Positions 10,556-35,810 of a stretch of DNA of 64,000 nt are shown here, piece by piece. Within the stretch, counting starts at the first letter, position 1. Every line of letters begins with the position of its first letter. The position numbers were made by a program, and so were the translations under genes. Under the pieces are notes generated by a model. That model saw nothing but the letters and a program-made list of their open reading frames with translations, was not told where the DNA came from and did no database searches. Source of the stretch: Acidothermaceae bacterium (GTDB taxonomy: Bacteria > Actinomycetota > Actinomycetes > Acidothermales > Acidothermaceae); NCBI GenBank assembly GCA_036501485.1, contig DASYAG010000122.1, positions 5,446 through 69,445 on the forward strand, given 5' to 3'.

Positions 10556-12052
10556 ATGCGGATCGCACGCTTGGCAACGTTTGCAGTTGTCCTTGGTCTC
10601 ACCGCGTCGGGCCTCGTCGCGGGTTCGGCGGCTGCGGCGAGCGGCATCACGGTGACCCGTTATCAGGGAGCGGACCGGTACGGCACCAGCGCCGCAATCG
10701 TCGACGCCAACTACTCGCCCGGCGTTCCTGTCGTCTATATCGCGAGTGGTCTTAACTTTCCCGACGCCCTAGCTGGTGGTGCTGCAGCGGCGAATGCGGG
10801 TGGGCCGCTGCTGCTCGTCGAACCCGGCGCGATCCCGCCCGCCGTTGCAACTGAACTGACGCGGCTGACGCCGGCGAGCATCGTTGTCCTCGGCGGCCCA
10901 CCGGCAGTCAGCGATGCGGTCGTAACCGCGTTGCAGAGTTACACGACTGGCACGGTCACCCGGGTAGCCGGCGCGGATCGGTACGCGACCGCGGCTGACC
11001 TGGCTGCGTCATTCCCGTCGGGTAGCCCGGTTTACATTGCGACGGGCCTCAGCTTCCCCGACGCACTCGGCGCTACTGCGGCGGCGACCCTGCAGCACGC
11101 CGCGATCCTGCTCACGGATCCGAACACGCTGCCAGCGTCAACTGCGGCAGCTCTTGCCGCGCTCATGCCGGAAAGCATCACGATTATTGGAGGCGCCACG
11201 GCAGTGTCTGCCGGGGTCGCTGCGTCGCTGGCGGCGTACAGCCCGATGGTGACCCGTATTTCTGGTTCGGATCGGTACGCAACTGCGGCGCAGTTGGCTG
11301 CGAATGCATTCCCCGACGCGACGGGCTTTTTCGTGGCCTCGGGCAGTGGCTTCGCTGATGCGCTGACCGGTGGCCCGGTCGCGGGCAAGCTTGGCGAGCC
11401 CTTGCTGCTCGCGACACCGACCTGCCTGCCGGCGAGTTCGACCGCTGTCGAAGCGGCGGCCCTCAATCCGTCAACGGTGACTCTGCTGGGCGGGACCGCG
11501 AGCCTCGGGGCGGGCGTCGCCGCACTGACCACGTGCCCGACACCGCCGGCGCCGGTTGCGCCGACGCCAGCGAAGATCACATTCGGCAACGGCACACGTC
11601 ACGTCGGCGCGAGCCTGCCAGCGGGGACCTATCGGACCCGCACCAACGCGACAGGCTGCTACTGGGCTCGCCTCAGTGGATTCAGCGGTGATCTGAGCGA
11701 CACCATCGCGAACAACGACTCCGACGCTCACCAGGTTGTCACCATCGCGCCGACCGACGCGGGATTCGAATCGTCGAACTGTTCGACGTGGACGAACGAC
11801 TTGTCGGCCATCACGTCATCAAAGACTGCATCTTTTGGCGACGGCATGTGGATCGTCAACACCGACATTGCACCGGGCACCTGGTCCGCGCCCGGCGGTG
11901 ACGAGTGCTACTGGGCACGACTTAGTGGATTCAGTGGTGATCTCAGCGACACCATCGCCAACGACGACGGCGGGAATACACCCATCGTGACCATCTACTC
12001 CACTGATGTCGGCTTCATCAGCGAAAACTGCGGTCAATGGACGCCGAGTTAG
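10556..12052 (+). CDS. Secreted protein with three cell-wall-binding-repeat-2-like units and a duplicated C-terminal Cys module
   Basis: Has a signal peptide (MRIARLATFAVVLGLTASGLVAGSAAAA). Three units start GADRYGTSAAI, GADRYATAADL and GSDRYATAAQL, each with FPDAL/FADAL and ...GG..A(V/L)S motifs. Two C-terminal copies of CYWARLSGFSGDLSDTIAN...C..WT follow. Confidence 0.7.
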   Translation: MRIARLATFAVVLGLTASGLVAGSAAAASGITVTRYQGADRYGTSAAIVDANYSPGVPVVYIASGLNFPDALAGGAAAANAGGPLLLVEPGAIPPAVATELTRLTPASIVVLGGPPAVSDAVVTALQSYTTGTVTRVAGADRYATAADLAASFPSGSPVYIATGLSFPDALGATAAATLQHAAILLTDPNTLPASTAAALAALMPESITIIGGATAVSAGVAASLAAYSPMVTRISGSDRYATAAQLAANAFPDATGFFVASGSGFADALTGGPVAGKLGEPLLLATPTCLPASSTAVEAAALNPSTVTLLGGTASLGAGVAALTTCPTPPAPVAPTPAKITFGNGTRHVGASLPAGTYRTRTNATGCYWARLSGFSGDLSDTIANNDSDAHQVVTIAPTDAGFESSNCSTWTNDLSAITSSKTASFGDGMWIVNTDIAPGTWSAPGGDECYWARLSGFSGDLSDTIANDDGGNTPIVTIYSTDVGFISENCGQWTPS

Positions 12053-17121: not shown

Positions 17122-18264
17122 CTACTGGACGGTGAAGGTCTTGTCGTCGAGGAAGGTCACCGAGCCGTCTTTCGCCGAGGTCTCGTAGGCCCGGATCGCG
17201 TATTTCCCCGGCGCGAGGCCCTCGAGTGTGACGCTCCACAGACCACGCTCGGGAGCACCCTTGTCGGCGTTGACACTTCCGGTCTTGAGGACGCCCCCGT
17301 TGCTGCGCAACTGCCACGTGACGGTGCCCTCGAAGACGCTTGCCTCGCCGGTGATGTTGACCGATGATGCGACAGTCGCGTTCTCGACCGGCGCCGTGAT
17401 CCAGACGTGGCCCCACACTTGCCAGGTCGGCAGCGGGCTGACGGTGCCTGGGGCGGTTGTCGTTGGAGACGCGGGCGGGCTGGAGCTAGCAGTCGATCCG
17501 AGCGGGGTCCCCCAGAGGGAGGTCACTGGCACGCCCGCGATCTGCAACTGCAGGCTGTCGATCTTCGGCGCTGCGGCGATGATTGTGTAGAGCAACTGCT
17601 GCGCGCTGATCGCGGCCTCGTTCGCGGGACCGCTGCTCGCCTGGCTCGACAAGTTCACGACGGCCGTCGTGGTGTTCACGATGCTGGCCGATATCAGCGT
17701 GGTGCCGGCCGGCCAGTAGCTGGTGTAGTCGGGATCCTGCGCCGGCGTGGCGAGCATCGCGTCGACCGCGTCTTTGACGAAGGTGTGCTGGGGTGACGAC
17801 GGCCAGGTCGCCTTCTCGCGGAACAGCAGCTGCTGAGGGTCTTTGCGTTCGTCGACGTAGTAGACCCACACCGGGTAGGTGCTGGGCTCCGACGAAGCCG
17901 GCGGGGTCGAGACGGTTGGAGTGGCGGGCGGCACGACCGGTGCCGATGCTGCGGGCGTCGGCGATGAGGGAGCGGCGGCTGTCGCCGCGGGGTGGTTGGG
18001 GGTGCCCGACTTGTTCTGCGCAATGGCAACGCCGATGAACGCTACCGCTGCTGTTGCCAGGCCGGCGCCGCCGATCTGGAACGCGCGCAGCCAATTGCGC
18101 CGCCTCGGACGCTGGGCACGGATCTTCTCGCGGATCATCGACAGTCCATCGGCGGACGGCGTGATGGCTCGGGCTTCGCGCGCCAGCAGTTCGCGCAGGC
18201 GGCGCGCGGCGTCGTCGTCGGTGGATGCGTCGTCGGGGTCGAACGGACCCGGCCGGTCGCTCAT
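17122..18264 (-). CDS. Membrane-anchored GerMN-like plus Gmad2-like Ig-fold protein, coupled to an ECF sigma factor
   Basis: ATGA overlap with the upstream sigma gene. It has an acidic cytoplasmic N-terminus, a TM helix (AFQIGGAGLATAAVAFIGVAIA) and a Pro-rich linker. These are followed by a GerMN-like segment (VWVYYV...FVKDAVDAML...VVNLSS) and a C-terminal Ig-like segment (VNITGEASVFEGTVTWQL...YAIRAYETSAKDGS). Confidence 0.65.
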   Translation of the reverse strand: MSDRPGPFDPDDASTDDDAARRLRELLAREARAITPSADGLSMIREKIRAQRPRRRNWLRAFQIGGAGLATAAVAFIGVAIAQNKSGTPNHPAATAAAPSSPTPAASAPVVPPATPTVSTPPASSEPSTYPVWVYYVDERKDPQQLLFREKATWPSSPQHTFVKDAVDAMLATPAQDPDYTSYWPAGTTLISASIVNTTTAVVNLSSQASSGPANEAAISAQQLLYTIIAAAPKIDSLQLQIAGVPVTSLWGTPLGSTASSSPPASPTTTAPGTVSPLPTWQVWGHVWITAPVENATVASSVNITGEASVFEGTVTWQLRSNGGVLKTGSVNADKGAPERGLWSVTLEGLAPGKYAIRAYETSAKDGSVTFLDDKTFTVQ

Positions 18265-27074: not shown

Positions 27075-27874
27075 TGGCTGCGCGGCGCGAGGTCAGTCTT
27101 CCGGCACCGCATCCGTCGGGCGCCCGGCCGCCACTGCTTCCGCCCGAACTCGTGCCACGACACGTGGCGATCGTGATGGATGGGAATGGTCGGTGGGCTC
27201 GGGCTCGCGGCTTGCCCCGCACCGCCGGCCATGAACGCGGCGAGGCAGCGCTACTCGACGTCGTCGAAGGCGCCATCGAAGTCGGCGTGGGCGCGATCTC
27301 GGCGTACGCATTTTCGACGGAGAACTGGAAGCGCTCGCCCGACGAAGTGAAGTTCCTGATGGGCTTCAACCGCGACGTGATTCGCCGCCGTCGTGACTAC
27401 ATGCACTCACTCGGCGTTCGGGTGCGTTGGGCCGGGCGGCGTCCGCGATTGTGGGCGAGCGTCATTCGCGAACTCGAAATCGCCGAGGACTTGACCCGCG
27501 ACAACGACGTGCTCACGTTGACGATGTGCGTGAACTACGGCGGCCGTGCCGAGATTGCTGATGCCGCGCGAGCACTCGCCCTCGACGTCGCGGCGGGCAA
27601 GCTCGACCCGAAACGGGTCGATGAGAAGATCTTCGCGCGCTACCTCGACGAGCCTTCAATGCCGGACGTCGATCTGTTCCTGCGATCGTCAGGTGAACAA
27701 CGCACGTCGAACTTCCTGCCATGGCAATCGGCCTACGCCGAGATGGTGTTTCTCGACACGCTGTGGCCCGATTTCGACCGGCGCGATCTGTGGCGGGCGG
27801 TCGAGATCTACGCCAGTCGCGATCGTCGGTACGGGACTGCGCGACCGAACCTCTCGGCGTCCGGCGGAGATTGA
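27074..27874 (+). CDS. uppS: Isoprenyl (Z-prenyl) diphosphate synthase
   Basis: Motifs [25 protein letters not shown] and [15 protein letters not shown]. The start overlaps the recO stop (TGATG). Confidence 0.9.
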
Positions 27875-27915
27875 TACGCTGGCCGCTCACCGACCGCCAG
27901 CCGGATGGACATTTC

Positions 27916-29316
<1,401 letters not shown>

Positions 29317-29363
29317 CCGTAGCCGCGGTCGGCCGTTCGAGGCTGCGCCAAATCCTGCGCATC

Positions 29364-29384
29364 TACTGCCCTCCAGGGGCAGTA
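29364..29384. terminator. Hairpin between convergent glyS and the immunity gene
   Basis: TACTGCCC-tccag-GGGCAGTA, 48 nt after the glyS stop codon. It could act in both directions. Confidence 0.4.
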
Positions 29385-29496
29385 AGTGCGCAAGATCTCG
29401 GCGTCGGAGTCGTTACCCGACCCTCATCATCCGTACGCCAAGACCGCTGATGCTCTACGCGTCCAAGAACGCGCGCTGACCAACAACACTCCGCAG

Positions 29497-29844
29497 CTAG
29501 TTTCGCCGACGGGTCTCGACGGGTACTGCGGAGTCCGGCTGCGTATTCCGTCCTGCTTCAAGTTCTCTGAGCAAGCCGGTTAGCCAAGCGCGCATGGTGA
29601 CGTTCTCGCGCGATGGATCGTAGTAAAGCGAGTAGTCCTCATCGATCGTTTGATGGAACTCGTCATCCGCCATGGGCTCTTGTACAAGCTCCCTGAGTTC
29701 CTCGATGACCTGATGGATCAGGATTGGATCAGCCGTGTCGAGAAAATCCATAGCGACATCGAGGCGTGACTCTGCGTCGAGCTGCCAGTCGGGATGGAAG
29801 TAGGAAAGGAATAATTCTTGGACGGCGAAGTAGCGGCGCTTCAC
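29497..29844 (-). CDS. CdiI-like immunity protein (family labelled contact-dependent growth inhibition system immunity protein)
   Basis: The GTG start overlaps the toxin stop (GTGA). The motif FLSYFHPDWQLD...YYDP...W resembles the FGAYFHQDW...-type immunity family as I recall it. The protein is acidic, 115 aa, and its gene is visibly lower in GC than its neighbours. Confidence 0.6.
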   Translation of the reverse strand: MKRRYFAVQELFLSYFHPDWQLDAESRLDVAMDFLDTADPILIHQVIEELRELVQEPMADDEFHQTIDEDYSLYYDPSRENVTMRAWLTGLLRELEAGRNTQPDSAVPVETRRRN

Positions 29845-31211
29845 GGGGCAACAAATCCCGTCAACATGTAATAGCCCAGCGGAGCCGAGGGTTGTGCTCG
29901 TAGGACCGCGACGGCGGTGGTGCCGTCGACTGATTCTCCTCTTCCTGCGAAGAGAACCCGGCCCACGGGTCTGTCAAAGGTTGCGGCGAACCTAAACTTC
30001 GCGCCGGCCTTCGCGCCCGCCAGCCAGACCCGGATCTCGCGTCCATTCGCCCATTGTAGATCCGCGAGGGCCTGCTCGGCCGTCGCACGGTCGGTGAAGG
30101 TCGATGCCTCGGTAACGCCCCGTGAAGCGAGACTGTCGTCGCCAACGCCGACATGAGTCAACACATGTCCGCCGAGCGCGTCATTTGCTCCGAGGCCGCC
30201 CGGATACGCGAGCCCGGAGCCTTTTGACGCCTGGAGCGCATGCGCGGCTTCGCCGTTGCTGGCGTGGACGATTGTGCTTGGTTTGATTAGGCGCGATTCG
30301 CGGAGTAGTGGTGCCGCTTTGGTGACGAGCTTGCCTCCTCCGGCTGGTGCGAAGCTCAGCGCGTCGACGCCCACCGAAGTCCACGAACCCTTGCCGGTTG
30401 CAGCAAGCGCAGTGTCGGCCATTCCTGCTGCGACCGAGCTGACCAGCGACACGGTCTCCAGTGCCGCTGCTGCAGCTTCCAGTGGCGGGAATGCGACGCC
30501 AGCGACCGCGAGAATCAGTGCCGCAGCACCGGCCAACGCCGATACAACGGTGCCGATCTTCGACACTTCGCGCAGTGTCTGGGTCCAATGGGTGGATGCC
30601 CAATGACCAACGGAGTGCGTGACGTGGTGGAACCACGACTGGTTGTGGATGCCGACGTGTGACGCCTGCTGCAACGCGGCCGCCGCAATACGCGCGGCCT
30701 GCTGCTGTTGCTCGTGCGCGTCGTCGTTCGATGCGACCGCTCTCTTGAGATCCGCGGCAGCCTCGTCGATGGACGCCTCGTAGCGCGTTGCAGTTAGAGG
30801 CGGTGGAAGTAGTCCGGTTGTGCGCGCGACAGTAGTAGCAGAAGCATCGCGGGCCGCAGCCGCTGCGTGCGCGGCAACAGCGGACGCAAGCTCGGCACTC
30901 GCGCGATCAGCTGCTGCGATTGCAGATGTTGACTGGTCTTGTGCGTCGGCGAGTGTGCGCGCGTAGGAGCCCAGCGCACGTCCTGCTGCCGCATAGGACA
31001 CGTTCGCTTTGTCGAGTGACGGCGGTAGCGACGCGGTGCGGACGTGGGCGGAAACAGCGGCCGCGCCTGTCCACGAGTCATCGCCAGCCGCAAGTGCGCG
31101 TAGTCGGCTCGCAATGTTCGCAACATCCAACGCGATTGACTCGAGTGTGCGACCGGCAGCTGAAACAGCCATTGGATCGCCGGCGATCGGATCGAGAACA
31201 TCAACAGGCAC
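29841..31211 (-). CDS. Polymorphic toxin candidate: WxG helical N-terminal domain, hydrophobic central segment, RNase-A-like (CdiA-CT type) C-terminal domain
   Basis: W47-T-G49 lies in an Ala-rich helical N-terminus. A hydrophobic stretch spans aa 219-272. The C-terminus GGHVLTHVGVGDDSLASR...STFTDRATAEQAL...YYMLTGFVAP resembles the GHT(I/L)xRHVGK...L(T/S)xYP pattern of bacterial RNase-A-like toxin domains. An immunity-like gene follows. Confidence 0.6.
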   Translation of the reverse strand: MPVDVLDPIAGDPMAVSAAGRTLESIALDVANIASRLRALAAGDDSWTGAAAVSAHVRTASLPPSLDKANVSYAAAGRALGSYARTLADAQDQSTSAIAAADRASAELASAVAAHAAAAARDASATTVARTTGLLPPPLTATRYEASIDEAAADLKRAVASNDDAHEQQQQAARIAAAALQQASHVGIHNQSWFHHVTHSVGHWASTHWTQTLREVSKIGTVVSALAGAAALILAVAGVAFPPLEAAAAALETVSLVSSVAAGMADTALAATGKGSWTSVGVDALSFAPAGGGKLVTKAAPLLRESRLIKPSTIVHASNGEAAHALQASKGSGLAYPGGLGANDALGGHVLTHVGVGDDSLASRGVTEASTFTDRATAEQALADLQWANGREIRVWLAGAKAGAKFRFAATFDRPVGRVLFAGRGESVDGTTAVAVLRAQPSAPLGYYMLTGFVAP

Positions 31212-31275: not shown

Positions 31276-31947
31276 TCAGTAGTGCAACTCGAGACTCTGA
31301 GCCATCGTGTCGAACAGTTCGGTCATTATCCGGGCATATGGAGGGCACGTAGAAGTGAACGTCACCACGACATGCGCACCACAGCCGAACAACGGCACGA
31401 TGTATTGCACGACGATCCCGTCGTTCTCGACGCAAAGTCGCACCACCGCGCCGACGAATGGCAGCGTCACGACCCCGGCGTTGGCACCGGTCCAGATGGG
31501 GTCACCGTCAATGACGGCTACTAGCGCGACGCACCGTTCGGCCACAGACGGGTTCCGCTCACCGGGAAATACCACCGTGTCGACCTCACAGATTTGCATC
31601 ACGACGGTTGCGACTAGCGCGCCATACTTGGTGTCCTCGATGACCCTCGACGCGCAGTAGAAAGCGCCGGCGTTGTTGGCGCGAGTGGTTAGGCGATCGA
31701 GCAAGGCGATGAGCGGGATGGCGTCGGGTGCCAATGCCCGCGAGCGGACTATCGCCCGTCGAACTGCACGGCGGATCGACGTGTGCCGAGTGCTGGCATC
31801 GAGGTCGAGCTCGATCCAATTGCCCGGCGTGACGATGCTCGCCTTCGCCAGGGGGCGCGGCGCCAGCGGCCCCAGTAGTTCGATCCTCTGCGCCGGCGGA
31901 TCGGAGGGCTGCCACCCCAACCCCTCGTCGTCCGGACTGATCGTCAT
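31276..31947 (-). CDS. Hypothetical protein of the toxin locus (no recognisable family)
   Basis: 223-aa ORF whose ATGA start overlaps the upstream small gene. It has no TM helix or signal peptide by eye, and looks like a mixed alpha/beta, Val-rich protein. Confidence 0.55.
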   Translation of the reverse strand: MTISPDDEGLGWQPSDPPAQRIELLGPLAPRPLAKASIVTPGNWIELDLDASTRHTSIRRAVRRAIVRSRALAPDAIPLIALLDRLTTRANNAGAFYCASRVIEDTKYGALVATVVMQICEVDTVVFPGERNPSVAERCVALVAVIDGDPIWTGANAGVVTLPFVGAVVRLCVENDGIVVQYIVPLFGCGAHVVVTFTSTCPPYARIMTELFDTMAQSLELHY

Positions 31948-32234
31948 TGCATTGCTGCTGCGAGGTCGCCGTCAGTGGAGCTGTAGATCTGAGACGCCTG
32001 GGTGAGCAGATCCGAGAGCTGCCCGACGTCCGCACAGATTTGAGCCCGACCGTCGTGCCAGCCGGTGACGAAGTGGTGCAAGGCGCCCGCGACCACGTCT
32101 GAACCGAGCGCCGGCCCAACATCGACGCCGAGGTCTGCGGTCAGCGAGAGGTCGTCGCGGACCCGGCCCACGGCACAGGCGAGCAAGGCAAGAGAAGCGG
32201 GCGTGACAACAAATCCCCGCGCGGCGTCCGGCAC
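31944..32234 (-). CDS. Small helical WXG100/EspC-like protein with C-terminal YxxxD motif
   Basis: 96 aa, first gene of the locus. FVVTPASL...HHFVTGW...LLTQASQIYSSTDGDLAAA follows the layout of EspC/DUF2580-type T7SS substrates. Y84-S-S-T-D88 is a YxxxD/E export motif. Confidence 0.5.
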   Translation of the reverse strand: MPDAARGFVVTPASLALLACAVGRVRDDLSLTADLGVDVGPALGSDVVAGALHHFVTGWHDGRAQICADVGQLSDLLTQASQIYSSTDGDLAAAMQ

Positions 32235-32378: not shown

Positions 32379-35069
32379 GTGCCGAAGTATGTGTACGACT
32401 TCAGCGAAGGCAACCGAGACATGAAGGACCTTCTCGGCGGCAAGGGCGCGAACCTCGCCGAGATGACCAACATCGGGCTTCCGGTGCCTCCCGGCTTCAT
32501 CATCACGACGCAGGCGTGCCGCACCTATCTCGAGAGCGGCGATGCGCCGGTCGAGATGGAAGACGAGATCAGCGAGCACCTCGCCAGCCTCGAGAAGGCC
32601 ATGGGCAAGACCCTCGGCGACGCCGACGATCCGCTGCTCGTCTCGGTGCGATCCGGCGCGAAGTTCTCGATGCCCGGAATGATGGACACCGTCCTGAACA
32701 TCGGCCTGAACGACCAGAGCGTGAACGGCCTTGCGAAGCAGGGCGGCAACGACCGGTTCGCCTGGGACTCTTACCGCCGGTTGCTCTCGATGTTCGGCAA
32801 GACAGTGCTCGGGGCCGACGGCGAGTTGTTCGAGCACGCGCTCGACGAACTGAAGACGAGCCGCAACACCAAGAACGACCTCGACCTCGACGCCGCCGAC
32901 TTCCAGGCGTTGGTCGAGACCTACAAAGGCATCATCCGCGACCACGCCGGCCGCGAGTTCCCGCAAGACTCCCGCGAGCAGCTCGATCTCGCCGTCCGCG
33001 CCGTTTTTGATTCCTGGAACGGCGATCGCGCCCGCCTTTACCGTCGCCAGGAGCGCATTCCGGCCGACCTCGGCACCGCCGTCAACATCGTCGCGATGGT
33101 GTTCGGCAACATCAGCGCCGAGTCGGGCACCGGTGTCGCCTTCACCCGCGACCCCGGATCGGGCGATCAGGGCATCTACGGCGACTACCTCGAGAACGCT
33201 CAGGGCGAAGACGTCGTCGCCGGGATCCGCAACACCGTGCCGCTGGCCGACCTCGAGACGATCGACAAGCCCGCCTACGACGAGTTGCTCGGCATCATGA
33301 GCAAGCTCGAGAAGCACTACAAGGACCTCTGCGACATCGAGTTCACCATCGAGAACAACAAGCTCTGGATGCTGCAGACCCGCGTCGGCAAGCGCACAGC
33401 GGGCGCAGCTTTCCGTATCGCGACGCAGCTTGTCGACGAGGGCCTGATCGACATGAACGAGGCACTCCAGCGGGTTACGGGCGCGCAACTCGCGCAGCTG
33501 ATGTTCCCGAAGTTCGACGAAGACGCGAAGAAGATGAAGATCACCAAGGCCGTCAACGCGTCACCCGGTGCGGCGGTCGGCAAGGTCGTGTTCGACTCGG
33601 TCGTCGCGGCAGAGTGGGCCGCCAAGGGCGAGGACGTCATCCTCGTCCGTCGCGAGACCAACCCCGATGACCTGCCGGGCATGATCGCCGCCAAGGGCAT
33701 CTTGACCGAGCGCGGGGGCAAGACGTCGCACGCGGCCGTCGTCGCACGCGGCATGGGCAAGACCTGCGTATCGGGCGCCGAGCAGATCAGCGTCGACCTC
33801 AAGACCCGTCAGTTCACCGGCCCGAATGGCGAGGTCGTCAAGGAAGGCGACGTCATCTCGATCGATGGCACCTCGGGCATGGTCTACCTCGGTGAGGTTC
33901 CGGTCGTTCCTAGCCCGGTCGTGCAGTACTTCGAAGGCACCATCAGGGCGGACGCCGACCCGCTGGTCGCCGCGGTCCACCGCATCCTCGTACACGCAGA
34001 CTCAAAGCGGCGCCTCGGCGTCGAAGCGAACGCCGACACCCCCGAGGACGCCGAGCGCGCGCGTCGTTTCGGCGGCGAAGGCATTGGCCTGTGTCGTACC
34101 GAGCACATGTTCCTCGGTGAGCGTCGCAAGAACGTCGAGCGACTGATCCTGGCTAACGGCGAAGAGGAGCAGAAGGCAGCACTGGCCGAACTGCTTCCGT
34201 TGCAGCGCACCGACTTCATCGGCATCTTCGACGCGATGGACGGCTTGCCTGTAACGGTCCGCCTTATCGACCCGCCGCTGCACGAGTTCTTGCCCGACAT
34301 CACCGAGCTCACCGTCAAGATCGCCGTCGCCGAGGCGAAGGGCGAGAAGGTCGCTGACAAGGATCGGGTGCTGCTCGAGGCGGTGCGTCGACTGCACGAG
34401 CAGAACCCGATGCTCGGGCTTCGCGGCGTCCGCCTCGGGCTTGTCATTCCTGGGCTCTTTGCCTTGCAGGTAAGGGCAATTGCCGAAGCGGCCGCGCATC
34501 TGAAGAAGCTCGGCAAGAACCCGGTTCCGGAGATCATGGTTCCGCTGGTTGGTGCGGTGCAGGAGCTCGAGATCATTCGCGAGGAAGCGTTGGGCATTCT
34601 GGCTGACGTCGCGAAAGAGACCGGCGTCGAGGTGCACACGCTGATCGGCACGATGATCGAAGTGCCGCGCGCGGCGTTGACCGCCGGCCAGATTGCCGAA
34701 GCTGCTGACTTCTTCAGCTTCGGCACCAACGACCTCACGCAGATGGGCTGGGGCTTCTCGCGCGACGACGTCGAAGGCGCATTCTTCGGTCGCTACATGG
34801 ACCTCGGCATCTTCGGAGTCTCACCGTTCGAGACCCTAGACCGTGACGGCATCGGCCGGTTGGTGCGCATCGCCGTCGAGGAGGGTCGCGCGAGCAACCC
34901 GAACCTGCGGATCGGGATCTGCGGTGAGCACGGCGGCGACCCCGACTCAATCCACTTCTGCGACGAGGTCGGGCTCGACTACGTCTCGTGCTCGCCGTTC
35001 CGGATCCCGGTCGCCCGCCTCGAAGCCGGTCGCGCCGCTCTAGAGACGGCGGGTTCCGACACGCGCTGA
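32379..35069 (+). CDS. ppdK: Pyruvate, phosphate dikinase
   Basis: GGKGANLAEM, the phosphohistidine motif GGKTSHAAVVARGMG and the C-terminal FFSFGTNDLTQM...CGEHGGDP are present over the full 896 aa. The GTG start is preceded by GAGGAG. Confidence 0.95.
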   Translation: MPKYVYDFSEGNRDMKDLLGGKGANLAEMTNIGLPVPPGFIITTQACRTYLESGDAPVEMEDEISEHLASLEKAMGKTLGDADDPLLVSVRSGAKFSMPGMMDTVLNIGLNDQSVNGLAKQGGNDRFAWDSYRRLLSMFGKTVLGADGELFEHALDELKTSRNTKNDLDLDAADFQALVETYKGIIRDHAGREFPQDSREQLDLAVRAVFDSWNGDRARLYRRQERIPADLGTAVNIVAMVFGNISAESGTGVAFTRDPGSGDQGIYGDYLENAQGEDVVAGIRNTVPLADLETIDKPAYDELLGIMSKLEKHYKDLCDIEFTIENNKLWMLQTRVGKRTAGAAFRIATQLVDEGLIDMNEALQRVTGAQLAQLMFPKFDEDAKKMKITKAVNASPGAAVGKVVFDSVVAAEWAAKGEDVILVRRETNPDDLPGMIAAKGILTERGGKTSHAAVVARGMGKTCVSGAEQISVDLKTRQFTGPNGEVVKEGDVISIDGTSGMVYLGEVPVVPSPVVQYFEGTIRADADPLVAAVHRILVHADSKRRLGVEANADTPEDAERARRFGGEGIGLCRTEHMFLGERRKNVERLILANGEEEQKAALAELLPLQRTDFIGIFDAMDGLPVTVRLIDPPLHEFLPDITELTVKIAVAEAKGEKVADKDRVLLEAVRRLHEQNPMLGLRGVRLGLVIPGLFALQVRAIAEAAAHLKKLGKNPVPEIMVPLVGAVQELEIIREEALGILADVAKETGVEVHTLIGTMIEVPRAALTAGQIAEAADFFSFGTNDLTQMGWGFSRDDVEGAFFGRYMDLGIFGVSPFETLDRDGIGRLVRIAVEEGRASNPNLRIGICGEHGGDPDSIHFCDEVGLDYVSCSPFRIPVARLEAGRAALETAGSDTR

Positions 35070-35129
35070 GACCAGCCCGGACGCCGAGGGGTGGCCGCCC
35101 GTACGGCCGACGCGGGATACTGGCGAGCT

Positions 35130-35810
35130 ATGGGAGACGTTCCGAATTTCCTTCCCAGTGCGCAGGGACTCCACTACGCCAACTCGTGGCCGTCCGCGCC
35201 GGTCGTCGAGGTTCCGACCCCGTTCGGCAACGTCGATATCGGCGATGCCAAGCATGGTCTGTGCGGCGGCATGGCCTACGCCGTCCGCGATCTGTTCGAA
35301 GCACATGCCGACCCGCCGCCGCAGACCGCCAATCCGCTGCCAACATCGCCCGCATTTCACTTCATCACCACACGATTGATCGACAGTTTCGACCTGCCCG
35401 ACGGCGTCGCGAAGTACTACGAGTGGATGAACTTGCCGACCGGCGACGAGTTCTTCGTGCATGGCACGTCGCGGCGAACCATCGAAGTTTCGATGCCTTT
35501 CATCCGTGCGACGATCGATGCCGGACACCCGTGTCCGCTGGGCGTTGTGTGCGTACATTCGGCCAACCCGCAGGACCTCGGCGAGAATCACCAGGTGCTC
35601 GCGTACGGCTATGCAGATACGACCTCGACAACCACTCTGCGGCTCTACGACTGCAATCATCCAGACGACGACGGCGTGACGATCGCGTTCGATCACACGA
35701 GCCCGCACCACTCGACGAAGTTCAACTACTCCTACGACGACCACACCGTGATTGGATTCTTCCCGAGCCAGTACACGCCAAAGGATCCGTCGCCGCTCTT
35801 CCAGCTGTGA
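35130..35810 (+). CDS. Papain-fold-like hypothetical protein (candidate Cys-His-Asp/Asn triad)
   Basis: GLCGGMAYAV (candidate nucleophile), NHQVLAYGY (candidate His) and LYDCNHPDDD are spaced as in C39/BtrH-like cysteine peptidases or amidases. I see no signal peptide. Confidence 0.5.
   Translation: MGDVPNFLPSAQGLHYANSWPSAPVVEVPTPFGNVDIGDAKHGLCGGMAYAVRDLFEAHADPPPQTANPLPTSPAFHFITTRLIDSFDLPDGVAKYYEWMNLPTGDEFFVHGTSRRTIEVSMPFIRATIDAGHPCPLGVVCVHSANPQDLGENHQVLAYGYADTTSTTTLRLYDCNHPDDDGVTIAFDHTSPHHSTKFNYSYDDHTVIGFFPSQYTPKDPSPLFQL

Follow-up and report, generated by a model that had tools for sequence, protein, structure and literature searches.

The stretch of DNA considered here (the window, 64 kb in length) comes from a metagenome-assembled genome (MAG) of an uncultured soil bacterium of the family Acidothermaceae. 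Between ppdK and glyS, it carries a four-gene operon read on the minus strand, from 32234 to 29497. It is fairly likely that this operon specifies a polymorphic antibacterial toxin system that belongs to the actinobacterial, type VII (ESX-like) kind. That its third gene encodes a polymorphic RNase toxin provided with a cognate immunity protein is highly probable, and the toxin is likely to be a substrate of a type VII secretion system (T7SS). In order of transcription, the genes encode a 96-residue small helical partner resembling EspC, PE and WXG100 proteins (31944..32234), a 223-residue accessory protein of an unannotated family with a Mog1/PsbP-like predicted fold (31276..31947), the toxin itself, of 456 residues (29841..31211, GTG start, stop codon included), and a 115-residue immunity protein (29497..29844). 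All are on the minus strand, as are the toxin segments delimited below. The start of the 223-residue gene overlaps the stop of the 96-residue gene as ATGA, and the TGA stop of the toxin gene overlaps the GTG start of the immunity gene as GTGA, as read directly on the DNA.

A preliminary description of this DNA had recognized in the toxin reading frame a helical head with a WxG motif, a hydrophobic middle part and an RNase A-like tail. The reading frame is real and is on the minus strand, the plus-strand reading of 29841-31211 being full of stop codons. It is not a chance open reading frame (ORF), because it has 85 homologues and because NCBI holds an identical protein under the title 'MAG TPA: RNase A-like domain-containing protein [Acidothermaceae bacterium]'. 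The host is indeed an actinobacterium, as had been supposed. Since it is an Acidothermaceae MAG and not a Mycolicibacterium, the Mycolicibacterium proposed for toxicity assays would only be a surrogate.

The nature of the toxin is indicated by its C-terminal domain (residues 347-456, 29844..30173). Residues 350-453 match the Pfam family PF18431 (RNAse_A_bac) with 59.2 bits for a cut-off of 27, over positions 3-112 of the 113 positions of the profile. A plain sequence search of the PDB returned a sole match, chain B of entry 5E3E, the CdiA-CT toxin of Yersinia kristensenii (E 4.4e-7), which is covered over its whole length (chain residues 1-114). Mutagenesis of this Yersinia toxin has shown that His175, Arg186, Thr276 and Tyr278 matter for activity, and the tyrosine is often replaced by phenylalanine in homologues (Batot et al., 2017; PMC5435912). 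Using the primer sequences of that study and the alignment of the tail to 5E3E chain B, the four residues could be mapped to H353, R364, T451 and F453, which would form the predicted active site. The first three do not vary in the 11 homologues carrying the same tail, and position 453 is either F or Y. Thus, the resemblance to the RNase A-like CdiA-CT domain previously seen in the tail (GGHVLTHVG...LTGFVAP) is borne out. The novelty that had been implied for an RNase fused to a T7SS delivery domain was, on the other hand, overstated, because RNase A-like domains on T7SS WXG100-type effectors of Gram-positive bacteria were already reported by Batot et al. (2017; PMC5435912) and because NCBI already labels the protein as RNase A-like.

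The gene downstream of the toxin, suspected from the start to confer immunity, encodes a member of the CdiI_2 family (PF18593, 54.2 bits for a cut-off of 26.7). The protein has no signal peptide, as expected because the toxin that it inhibits acts in the cytoplasm. The pairing of the RNase tail with CdiI_2 recurs in a related locus (L001). As judged from these homologies, the tail would cleave RNA and the 115-residue protein would neutralize it.

The polymorphic character of the system emerges from the comparison of the 85 homologues. Ten of them share the whole toxin sequence at 62-86% identity, whereas about 60 share residues 1 to ~320 only (62-90% identity) and then diverge completely. In close relatives, which are other Acidothermaceae soil MAGs, residues 1-323 are common at 85-90% identity. 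The divergence is preceded by a motif, (L/I)KPxT(V/I)VHAS(N)G, that closes the constant module at residues 310-320 (30252..30284), as delimited by the alignment of homologues and by the DNA breakpoint. Six unrelated C-terminal classes, including the RNase tail of the window, are found after this junction; a Pfam search with representatives of the five others gave no match. The commonest alternative tail (38 of the 74 aligned homologues) is accompanied by a small Zn-ribbon-like protein of the CxxC...CxxC type. Another one, of 87 residues, pairs with a DUF2283 protein. These five alternative tails and the small proteins paired with them are candidates for undescribed toxin and immunity families. 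The alternative classes are spread among homologues P0010-P0084, and two regions may be pointed out for them, L003:11176-11403 and L006:11319-11606.

The exchange can be followed on the DNA. Gene order is constant in three syntenic loci (ppdK, 96-residue gene, ~226-residue gene, toxin gene, small gene, glyS). At this same chromosomal site, the RNase tail is followed by CdiI_2, the class-1 tail by a 69-residue ORF and the class-2 tail by DUF2283. In L006 and L007, the small protein following the class-1 tail has 95-97 residues and is Cys-rich. When the window is compared by blastn with class-1-tail alleles, homology is unbroken from ppdK to ~30243 (codon 323) and resumes only at ~29320, at the end of glyS; with L006, it resumes earlier, at 29843. 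The breakpoints with L002, L006 and L007 thereby delimit an exchangeable module (29317..30243) made of the C-terminal toxin domain, the immunity gene and a short spacer. In L006 (11531-11950), an intact orphan CdiI_2-like gene, homologous to 29497-29844 of the window, stands behind a different tail and its 95-residue Cys-rich protein. In L007 (11617-11757), the same gene is reduced to its last ~25 codons. The third-position GC of the toxin gene (0.64-0.67) and of the immunity gene (0.66) is low as compared to that of glyS (27721-29316, 0.82) and ppdK (32379-35069, 0.86), with values in between (0.75-0.78) for the two upstream accessory genes. This suggests that the genes are of foreign or fast-turnover origin. 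Tail swap, orphan immunity gene, gene remnant and low third-position GC are the usual marks of inter-strain conflict at a polymorphic toxin locus. Two observations on related loci may be added. In L012, L014 and L017 (DASVDW and CAVVEX MAGs), a second copy of the scaffold, at 46-53% identity, is found at another site, without the 96-residue and 223-residue genes; its longest ORF has 808-815 residues in L014 and L017, where the true start is uncertain. In L008, L010, L011 and L018, from several 'MFD' MAG assemblies, the toxin gene is split by frameshifts, which may be assembly errors or real pseudogenes.

The N-terminal part of the toxin points to type VII secretion. Residues 1-190 (30642..31211) form a helical targeting domain, supported by Pfam, AlphaFold2 and Foldseek. 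The T7SS_signal family (PF21725) is recognized on residues 9-178 with 36.5 bits, above the cut-off of 27; a literature search on PF21725/T7SS_signal found no paper. The AlphaFold2 model of this head has long helices at residues 13-42, 50-132 and 141-186, with a predicted local distance difference test (pLDDT) of 83-97. The W47-T-G49 motif sits in the loop between the first two helices; across 59 homologues, the conservation of W47 and G49 is 90% or more. The closest structure found by Foldseek is PPE4 of the PE5-PPE4-EspG3 complex (6UUJ; probability 1.00, target TM-score 0.64, 19-20% identity), and the other matches of the whole-toxin model are BAR-domain long-helix structures. A profile search of the PDB with the toxin family gave nothing useful. 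The T7SS-type delivery domain and the WxG motif of the earlier proposal are thus retained, in a fold predicted to be PPE4-like. An LXG toxin of the firmicute T7SSb type was considered and rejected, as there is no LXG match at E <= 1 and the top structural match is to PPE4 rather than to an LXG complex.

The exact start of the toxin is ambiguous (31172-31211), since an ATG at M14 is called in many database homologues. Residues 4-13 (xLxPIxGDP) are, nevertheless, conserved even in relatives at 46-54% identity, and for this reason the GTG start at 31211 was kept. No obvious Shine-Dalgarno sequence is seen at either candidate start.

At the end of the head and just before the hydrophobic region, the His/Trp-rich stretch that had been noticed is present, at residues 189-209 (30585..30647), and is marked by conserved columns. 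In this stretch, HNQSWFHHVTHSVGHWASTHW, W193 and W209 never vary, and conservation reaches at least 90% at N190, S192, H203, W204 and A205. A Streptomyces relative and a metagenomic relative have a similar stretch, G-I-H/R-N...W...W. Its composition suggests that it may be an interfacial segment.

The toxin would not be exported alone. In mycobacterial T7SS, a WxG motif on one partner and a YxxxD/E motif on the other build a composite export signal (Benedict et al., 2026; PMC13444075). In the present operon, the WxG would be provided by the toxin and the YxxxD by the 96-residue protein, and the two proteins would pair. The Pfam match of the 96-residue protein of the window is by itself negligible; at the level of the family, 34 of 36 members match PF10824 (T7SS_ESX_EspC, best E 5e-6) and 19 match WXG100. 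Two elements are invariant in the family, a W59xDGR turn and a Y84-x-x-x-D88 export motif. When its profile is compared to the PDB, PE25 is found (E 0.014), with Y84 and D88 aligned on the YxxxE of PE25. Furthermore, the gene holds its position in 13 of 16 independent related loci, a count that omits L004, the duplicate of the L002 contig.

A connection with the secretion machinery is found in more distant genomes. In a scan of species-representative genomes, performed with patterns taken from the hydrophobic region of the toxin, the exact scaffold was found only in Acidothermaceae-type soil MAGs (15 loci). The family of the 223-residue protein is wider: a search of 1.84 billion representatives gave 324 clusters at E <= 1e-3, with hypothetical Streptomyces proteins among them. 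Three distant members were examined, and all three are encoded at 10 kb or less from an eccC-like gene (1461-1526 residues, FtsK_SpoIIIE domains), in loci that also hold small WXG100 or EspC-like (Esx-type) helical proteins. These three loci, one in Streptomyces sp. R39 and two on metagenomic contigs, contain homologous triads of small partner, accessory protein and hairpin scaffold. In Streptomyces sp. R39 (L019, CP163441.1:6007074-6027781), three paralogous modules stand beside genes for an eccC-like ATPase and a WXG100 protein. Each module consists of a small EspC-like gene followed by a gene for a T7SS_signal protein with the His/Trp segment and the hydrophobic hairpin, and homologues of the accessory protein accompany two of the three. 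The accessory paralogues of R39 have 230 and 187 residues (profile match), and a 199-residue neighbour is related to them by a shared N-terminal motif only. No recognizable toxin domain was found in the C-terminal regions of the R39 scaffolds. On a metagenomic contig (L021), a WXG100 gene is followed by genes for a partner with YxxxD, for the accessory protein and for the hairpin scaffold, then by two genes and by eccC on the opposite strand; a guess that the tail of this scaffold is TNT-like was not supported by Pfam. T7SS export of the module family is therefore well supported by association, and the toxin of the window would be secreted in an EccC-dependent manner.

Between head and tail, residues 219-272 (30396..30557) form an Ala/Gly-rich hydrophobic region, delimited by hydropathy, by the free energy of membrane insertion (dG) and by conservation. 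It had been proposed that this region contains two membrane helices, and this holds for the first only. Residues 219-241 are membrane-competent, with a Kyte-Doolittle maximum of 2.39 and a summed Hessa dG of ~0 kcal/mol. Residues 244-272 are weakly hydrophobic and do not make a stand-alone transmembrane helix, because they include E245, E252 and D266 and their dG is +5 to +8.7 kcal/mol. They could, however, fold back as a hairpin with helix 1 around the invariant P242-P243 turn. In this arrangement, the F241-P-P-L-E245 turn joins one membrane-competent helix and one weakly hydrophobic partner. The hairpin is the most conserved part of the toxin family, with S224, A227, A231, G238, P242, P243, L244, E245 and A248 invariant. 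Neither the conserved internal hydrophobic hairpin nor the Mog1/PsbP-like family associated with it was found described in the available literature. If any aspect of the locus is new, it is the hairpin with its putative chaperone. A role of the hairpin in membrane entry may be imagined.

The candidate for this chaperone is the 223-residue protein encoded upstream. From its sequence, it is cytoplasmic, with neither signal peptide nor membrane segment. It has no Pfam, NCBIfam or PADLOC match, and its family profile found no sequence in the PDB. The AlphaFold2 model (pLDDT 86.9, pTM 0.81) was compared to known structures with Foldseek, which identified a Mog1/PsbP-like alpha-beta sandwich related to PsbP, DcrB, LpqN, Mtc28, 3LYD, Tsi3, EagT6 (6XRF) and SciW (6XRR), with probabilities of 0.9-1.0. 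EagT6 (E 2.8e-3, target TM-score 0.46) is one among many PsbP/Mog1/LpqN/Tsi3 matches. EagT6 and SciW have been crystallized with effector transmembrane helices bound. The protein does not belong to DUF1795, since 0 of 60 members of its family match a relevant Pfam family, and an EspG-like chaperone was also rejected, no EspG being present among the 50 best Foldseek matches. Its gene adjoins that of the toxin whatever the tail class, and accompanies a hairpin toxin in 13 of 16 independent Acidothermaceae-type loci, as well as in L019 and L021. Because it is present whichever tail the toxin carries, the protein belongs with the constant module. This gives moderate support to the idea that it is a chaperone or an adaptor, possibly for the hairpin. 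That it specifically chaperones a membrane-entry hairpin is more doubtful, somewhat below an even chance. The preliminary description had raised the need for a chaperone; a candidate with an Eag-like predicted fold can now be named, and its role is conjectural because the same fold serves as an immunity protein elsewhere (Tsi3; LpqN-like Imm).

Taking these elements together, a stepwise mechanism may be envisaged. The 96-residue EspC/PE-like protein, through its YxxxD, would pair with the PPE-like head of the toxin, carrying the WxG. The pair would constitute a composite export signal for an EccC-type ATPase encoded elsewhere in the genome. Before export, the 223-residue protein would probably hold the constant region soluble, above all the Ala/Gly-rich hairpin. 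Once the toxin is exported, the hairpin would probably help it to enter or cross the membrane of a neighbour. In the cytoplasm of this neighbour, the RNase A-like domain would degrade RNA by means of the His353/Arg364/Thr451/Phe453 site. In the producer and in sibling cells, the cytoplasmic CdiI_2 protein would block the RNase. Finally, tail and immunity gene would be exchanged as one unit by recombination at the VVHAS junction.

Several observations weigh against this mechanism. T7SS core genes are absent from the 64-kb window and from the 10-kb flanks of 18 Acidothermaceae-type loci, so that a T7SS has to be assumed for this particular genome. The structural match of the head to PPE4 is statistically weak (E 0.05). 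The whole-toxin AlphaFold2 model is uninformative past residue 198, with a pLDDT below 50 for residues 219-456, because only ~10 sequences cover the tail; since this includes the RNase domain, its RNase A fold is deduced from sequence homology. The hairpin falls within the same region, so that its helices are modelled with low confidence, and its helix 2 is not membrane-competent alone. When the 115-residue immunity protein was compared to PDB sequences with phmmer, the CdiI chain of 5E3E was not matched. As for the 223-residue protein, the best Foldseek E is only 1.3e-3 with TM-scores of 0.3-0.5, and the Mog1/PsbP fold also occurs in the immunity proteins Tsi3 and LpqN-like Imm (the latter in PMC8092301).

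These uncertainties leave room for other explanations, which differ in the place where the hairpin and the RNase would act. It may be supposed that the toxin is exported yet remains anchored by its hairpin in the envelope of the producer, in a CdiA-like display allowing contact delivery, the 223-residue protein then being a T7SS adaptor. A hairpin would keep the two termini on one side of the membrane, the adjacent His/Trp-rich segment looks interfacial, and contact-dependent T7SS antagonism has been described in other bacteria. However, the helices are Ala/Gly-rich, with a dG of ~0 for one and of +5 to +8.7 kcal/mol for the other, a composition more usual in toxin hairpins that insert conditionally than in anchors that are permanent, and no release protease or cleavage motif was identified. 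This possibility is regarded as unlikely, though less so than the following ones. The fold shared by the 223-residue protein with Tsi3 and with the LpqN-like Imm of M. abscessus prophage cassettes (PMC8092301) leads to a different proposal, in which the hairpin would be a second, membrane-damaging activity and the 223-residue protein its immunity protein instead of its chaperone. The faster divergence of this protein, at 45-70% identity for 85-90% in the constant module, would agree with such a role, and membrane-depolarizing T7SS toxins such as TspA exist. Yet the 223-residue protein, which lacks both signal peptide and membrane segment, could not protect the membrane from outside. In addition, translational coupling links its gene to that of the partner, upstream of the toxin, whereas immunity genes sit downstream, and the hairpin is near-invariant, whereas an arms race between toxin and immunity protein predicts variation in both. 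We consider this proposal improbable.

A last explanation would dispense with export. The toxin would be an integral membrane protein of the producer, its hairpin inserted by the signal recognition particle (SRP)/YidC route with both termini left in the cytoplasm, and the RNase and CdiI_2 would form an intracellular toxin-antitoxin or abortive-infection module. The membrane-competent helix at residues 219-241, the lack of a Sec signal peptide, the cytoplasmic immunity protein and the fact that no T7SS genes were found near the locus in this genome would all fit. So would the pairing of the class-2 tail with DUF2283, a family that is also an antitoxin partner of DUF4258 toxins. In opposition to this, the operon includes a T7SS_signal/PPE-like head with WxG and a partner with YxxxD, and the module family repeatedly adjoins eccC. 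None of the four operon proteins matches a PADLOC defence model, and the combination of tail swap and orphan immunity gene at a fixed site is a signature of inter-strain conflict, not of an addiction module. Such an intracellular module thus appears very improbable, marginally the least probable of the three, and the exported antibacterial toxin is retained as the preferred interpretation.

How this exported toxin relates to known systems can be stated for each of its parts. Tail and immunity protein find their counterpart in the CdiA-CT/CdiI pair of Y. kristensenii ATCC 33638 (5E3E), the founding PF18431 toxin. The two tails are homologous over their full length, with the His, Arg and Thr kept, and in both cases the immunity gene is directly downstream, that of the window belonging to Pfam CdiI_2. 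In contrast, the delivery part is entirely different, Tyr278 is Phe in the toxin of the window, and the host is an actinobacterium. Membership of the contact-dependent growth inhibition (CDI, type V) systems was rejected: there are no TPS/FHA Pfam domains, no VENN (the junction is VVHAS) and no CdiB, and the neighbouring genes are housekeeping ones. What the system has in common with CDI is limited to the toxin and immunity domains. For the organization of the locus, counterparts are found among T7SS loci. WXG-headed T7SS toxins in actinobacteria were catalogued by Zhang et al. (2012), and ESX-4-dependent export of an antibacterial toxin in mycobacteria was demonstrated by Benedict et al. (2026; PMC13444075), who also listed comparable loci across the Actinomycetota. 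The EatA/TapA1/TapA2/EatI and eat-like loci of the latter study also have one or more small Tap-like genes upstream, a toxin with a helical N-terminus and a downstream immunity gene, and the PE/PPE-like arrangement of WxG and YxxxD/E is reported there together with ESX-4 (T7SSa)-dependent export. Unlike the RNase, the payload of EatA is an arabinanase that acts outside the cytoplasm and is counteracted by a lipoprotein inhibitor, and there are two small partners there for one in the window. A search of the text of PMC13444075 found no mention of an internal hydrophobic hairpin or of a Mog1/PsbP-like accessory gene.

Similar cassettes exist at prophage ends in M. abscessus (Dedrick et al., 2021; PMC8092301). 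They comprise a toxin of ~50 kDa whose N-terminus bears a WXG motif and whose C-terminus varies, together with a small partner of the ESAT-6 type and an immunity gene, and are predicted to use the T7SS of the host; the cassette of the window, by contrast, is at a fixed chromosomal site, ppdK/glyS. The PE25-PPE41-EspG5 and PE5-PPE4-EspG3 complexes likewise associate a small helical hairpin partner bearing YxxxD/E with a larger one bearing WxG. However, the proteins of the window lack PE/PPE signature motifs, the larger partner ends in a toxin domain, and no EspG-like chaperone was found. For the hairpin and the accessory protein, the parallel is to be sought in type VI secretion (T6SS), where prePAAR effectors are assisted by Eag chaperones (Tse6-EagT6, Rhs1-SciW; Ahmad et al., 2020; PMC7773334). 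In both cases, a cytoplasm-acting toxin with hydrophobic helices, implicated in passage through the target membrane, is adjacent to a small alpha-beta protein of the same general fold. This protein shields the helices before export in the T6SS, and may do so in the present system. The secretion system and the phylum differ, the hydrophobic segment is N-terminal in the T6SS effectors and internal in the toxin of the window, and the 223-residue protein has no sequence or Pfam similarity to DUF1795.

To our knowledge, the route by which cytoplasm-acting T7SS toxins cross the target membrane is unsolved. In this context, it is tempting to imagine an undescribed subclass of actinobacterial T7SS effectors, in which the His/Trp segment and the hairpin would carry cytoplasm-acting warheads across the target membrane with the help of a dedicated chaperone family of Mog1/PsbP fold. 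This idea is tentative, with roughly one chance in three in its favour. If it were true, it would describe an independently arisen T7SS counterpart of the T6SS prePAAR-TMD/Eag system, and would explain in concrete terms how nuclease toxins of the T7SS gain access to the cytoplasm of Gram-positive targets. The constant module is the part worth pursuing, its near-invariant hairpin and Eag-like-fold accessory protein travelling together and adjoining eccC in other actinobacteria. The homologues of Streptomyces sp. R39 offer a culturable system for testing export, chaperoning and entry. The locus itself is a clean, well-delimited case from an uncultured lineage, where natural alleles directly display the swap point, the orphan immunity gene and at least five alternative warheads without annotation.

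The operon is surrounded by housekeeping genes, the rest of the 64 kb including lepA, hrcA, dnaJ, phoH, era, leuA, recO, uppS, glyS, ppdK, dgt and dnaG, and no phage genes were found in the window. Directly after ppdK, on the plus strand (35091-35810), there is a conserved ORF of 239 residues with conserved Cys and His, of unassigned function and without annotation; its counterpart in L001-L003 has 226 residues and no Pfam match. Finally, two envelope proteins look unusual for the lineage. One, encoded on the plus strand (10556-12052), has three CWB2 cell-wall-binding repeats, and the other, on the minus strand (17122-18264), carries Germane and Gmad2 domains, both linked to sporulation and germination.

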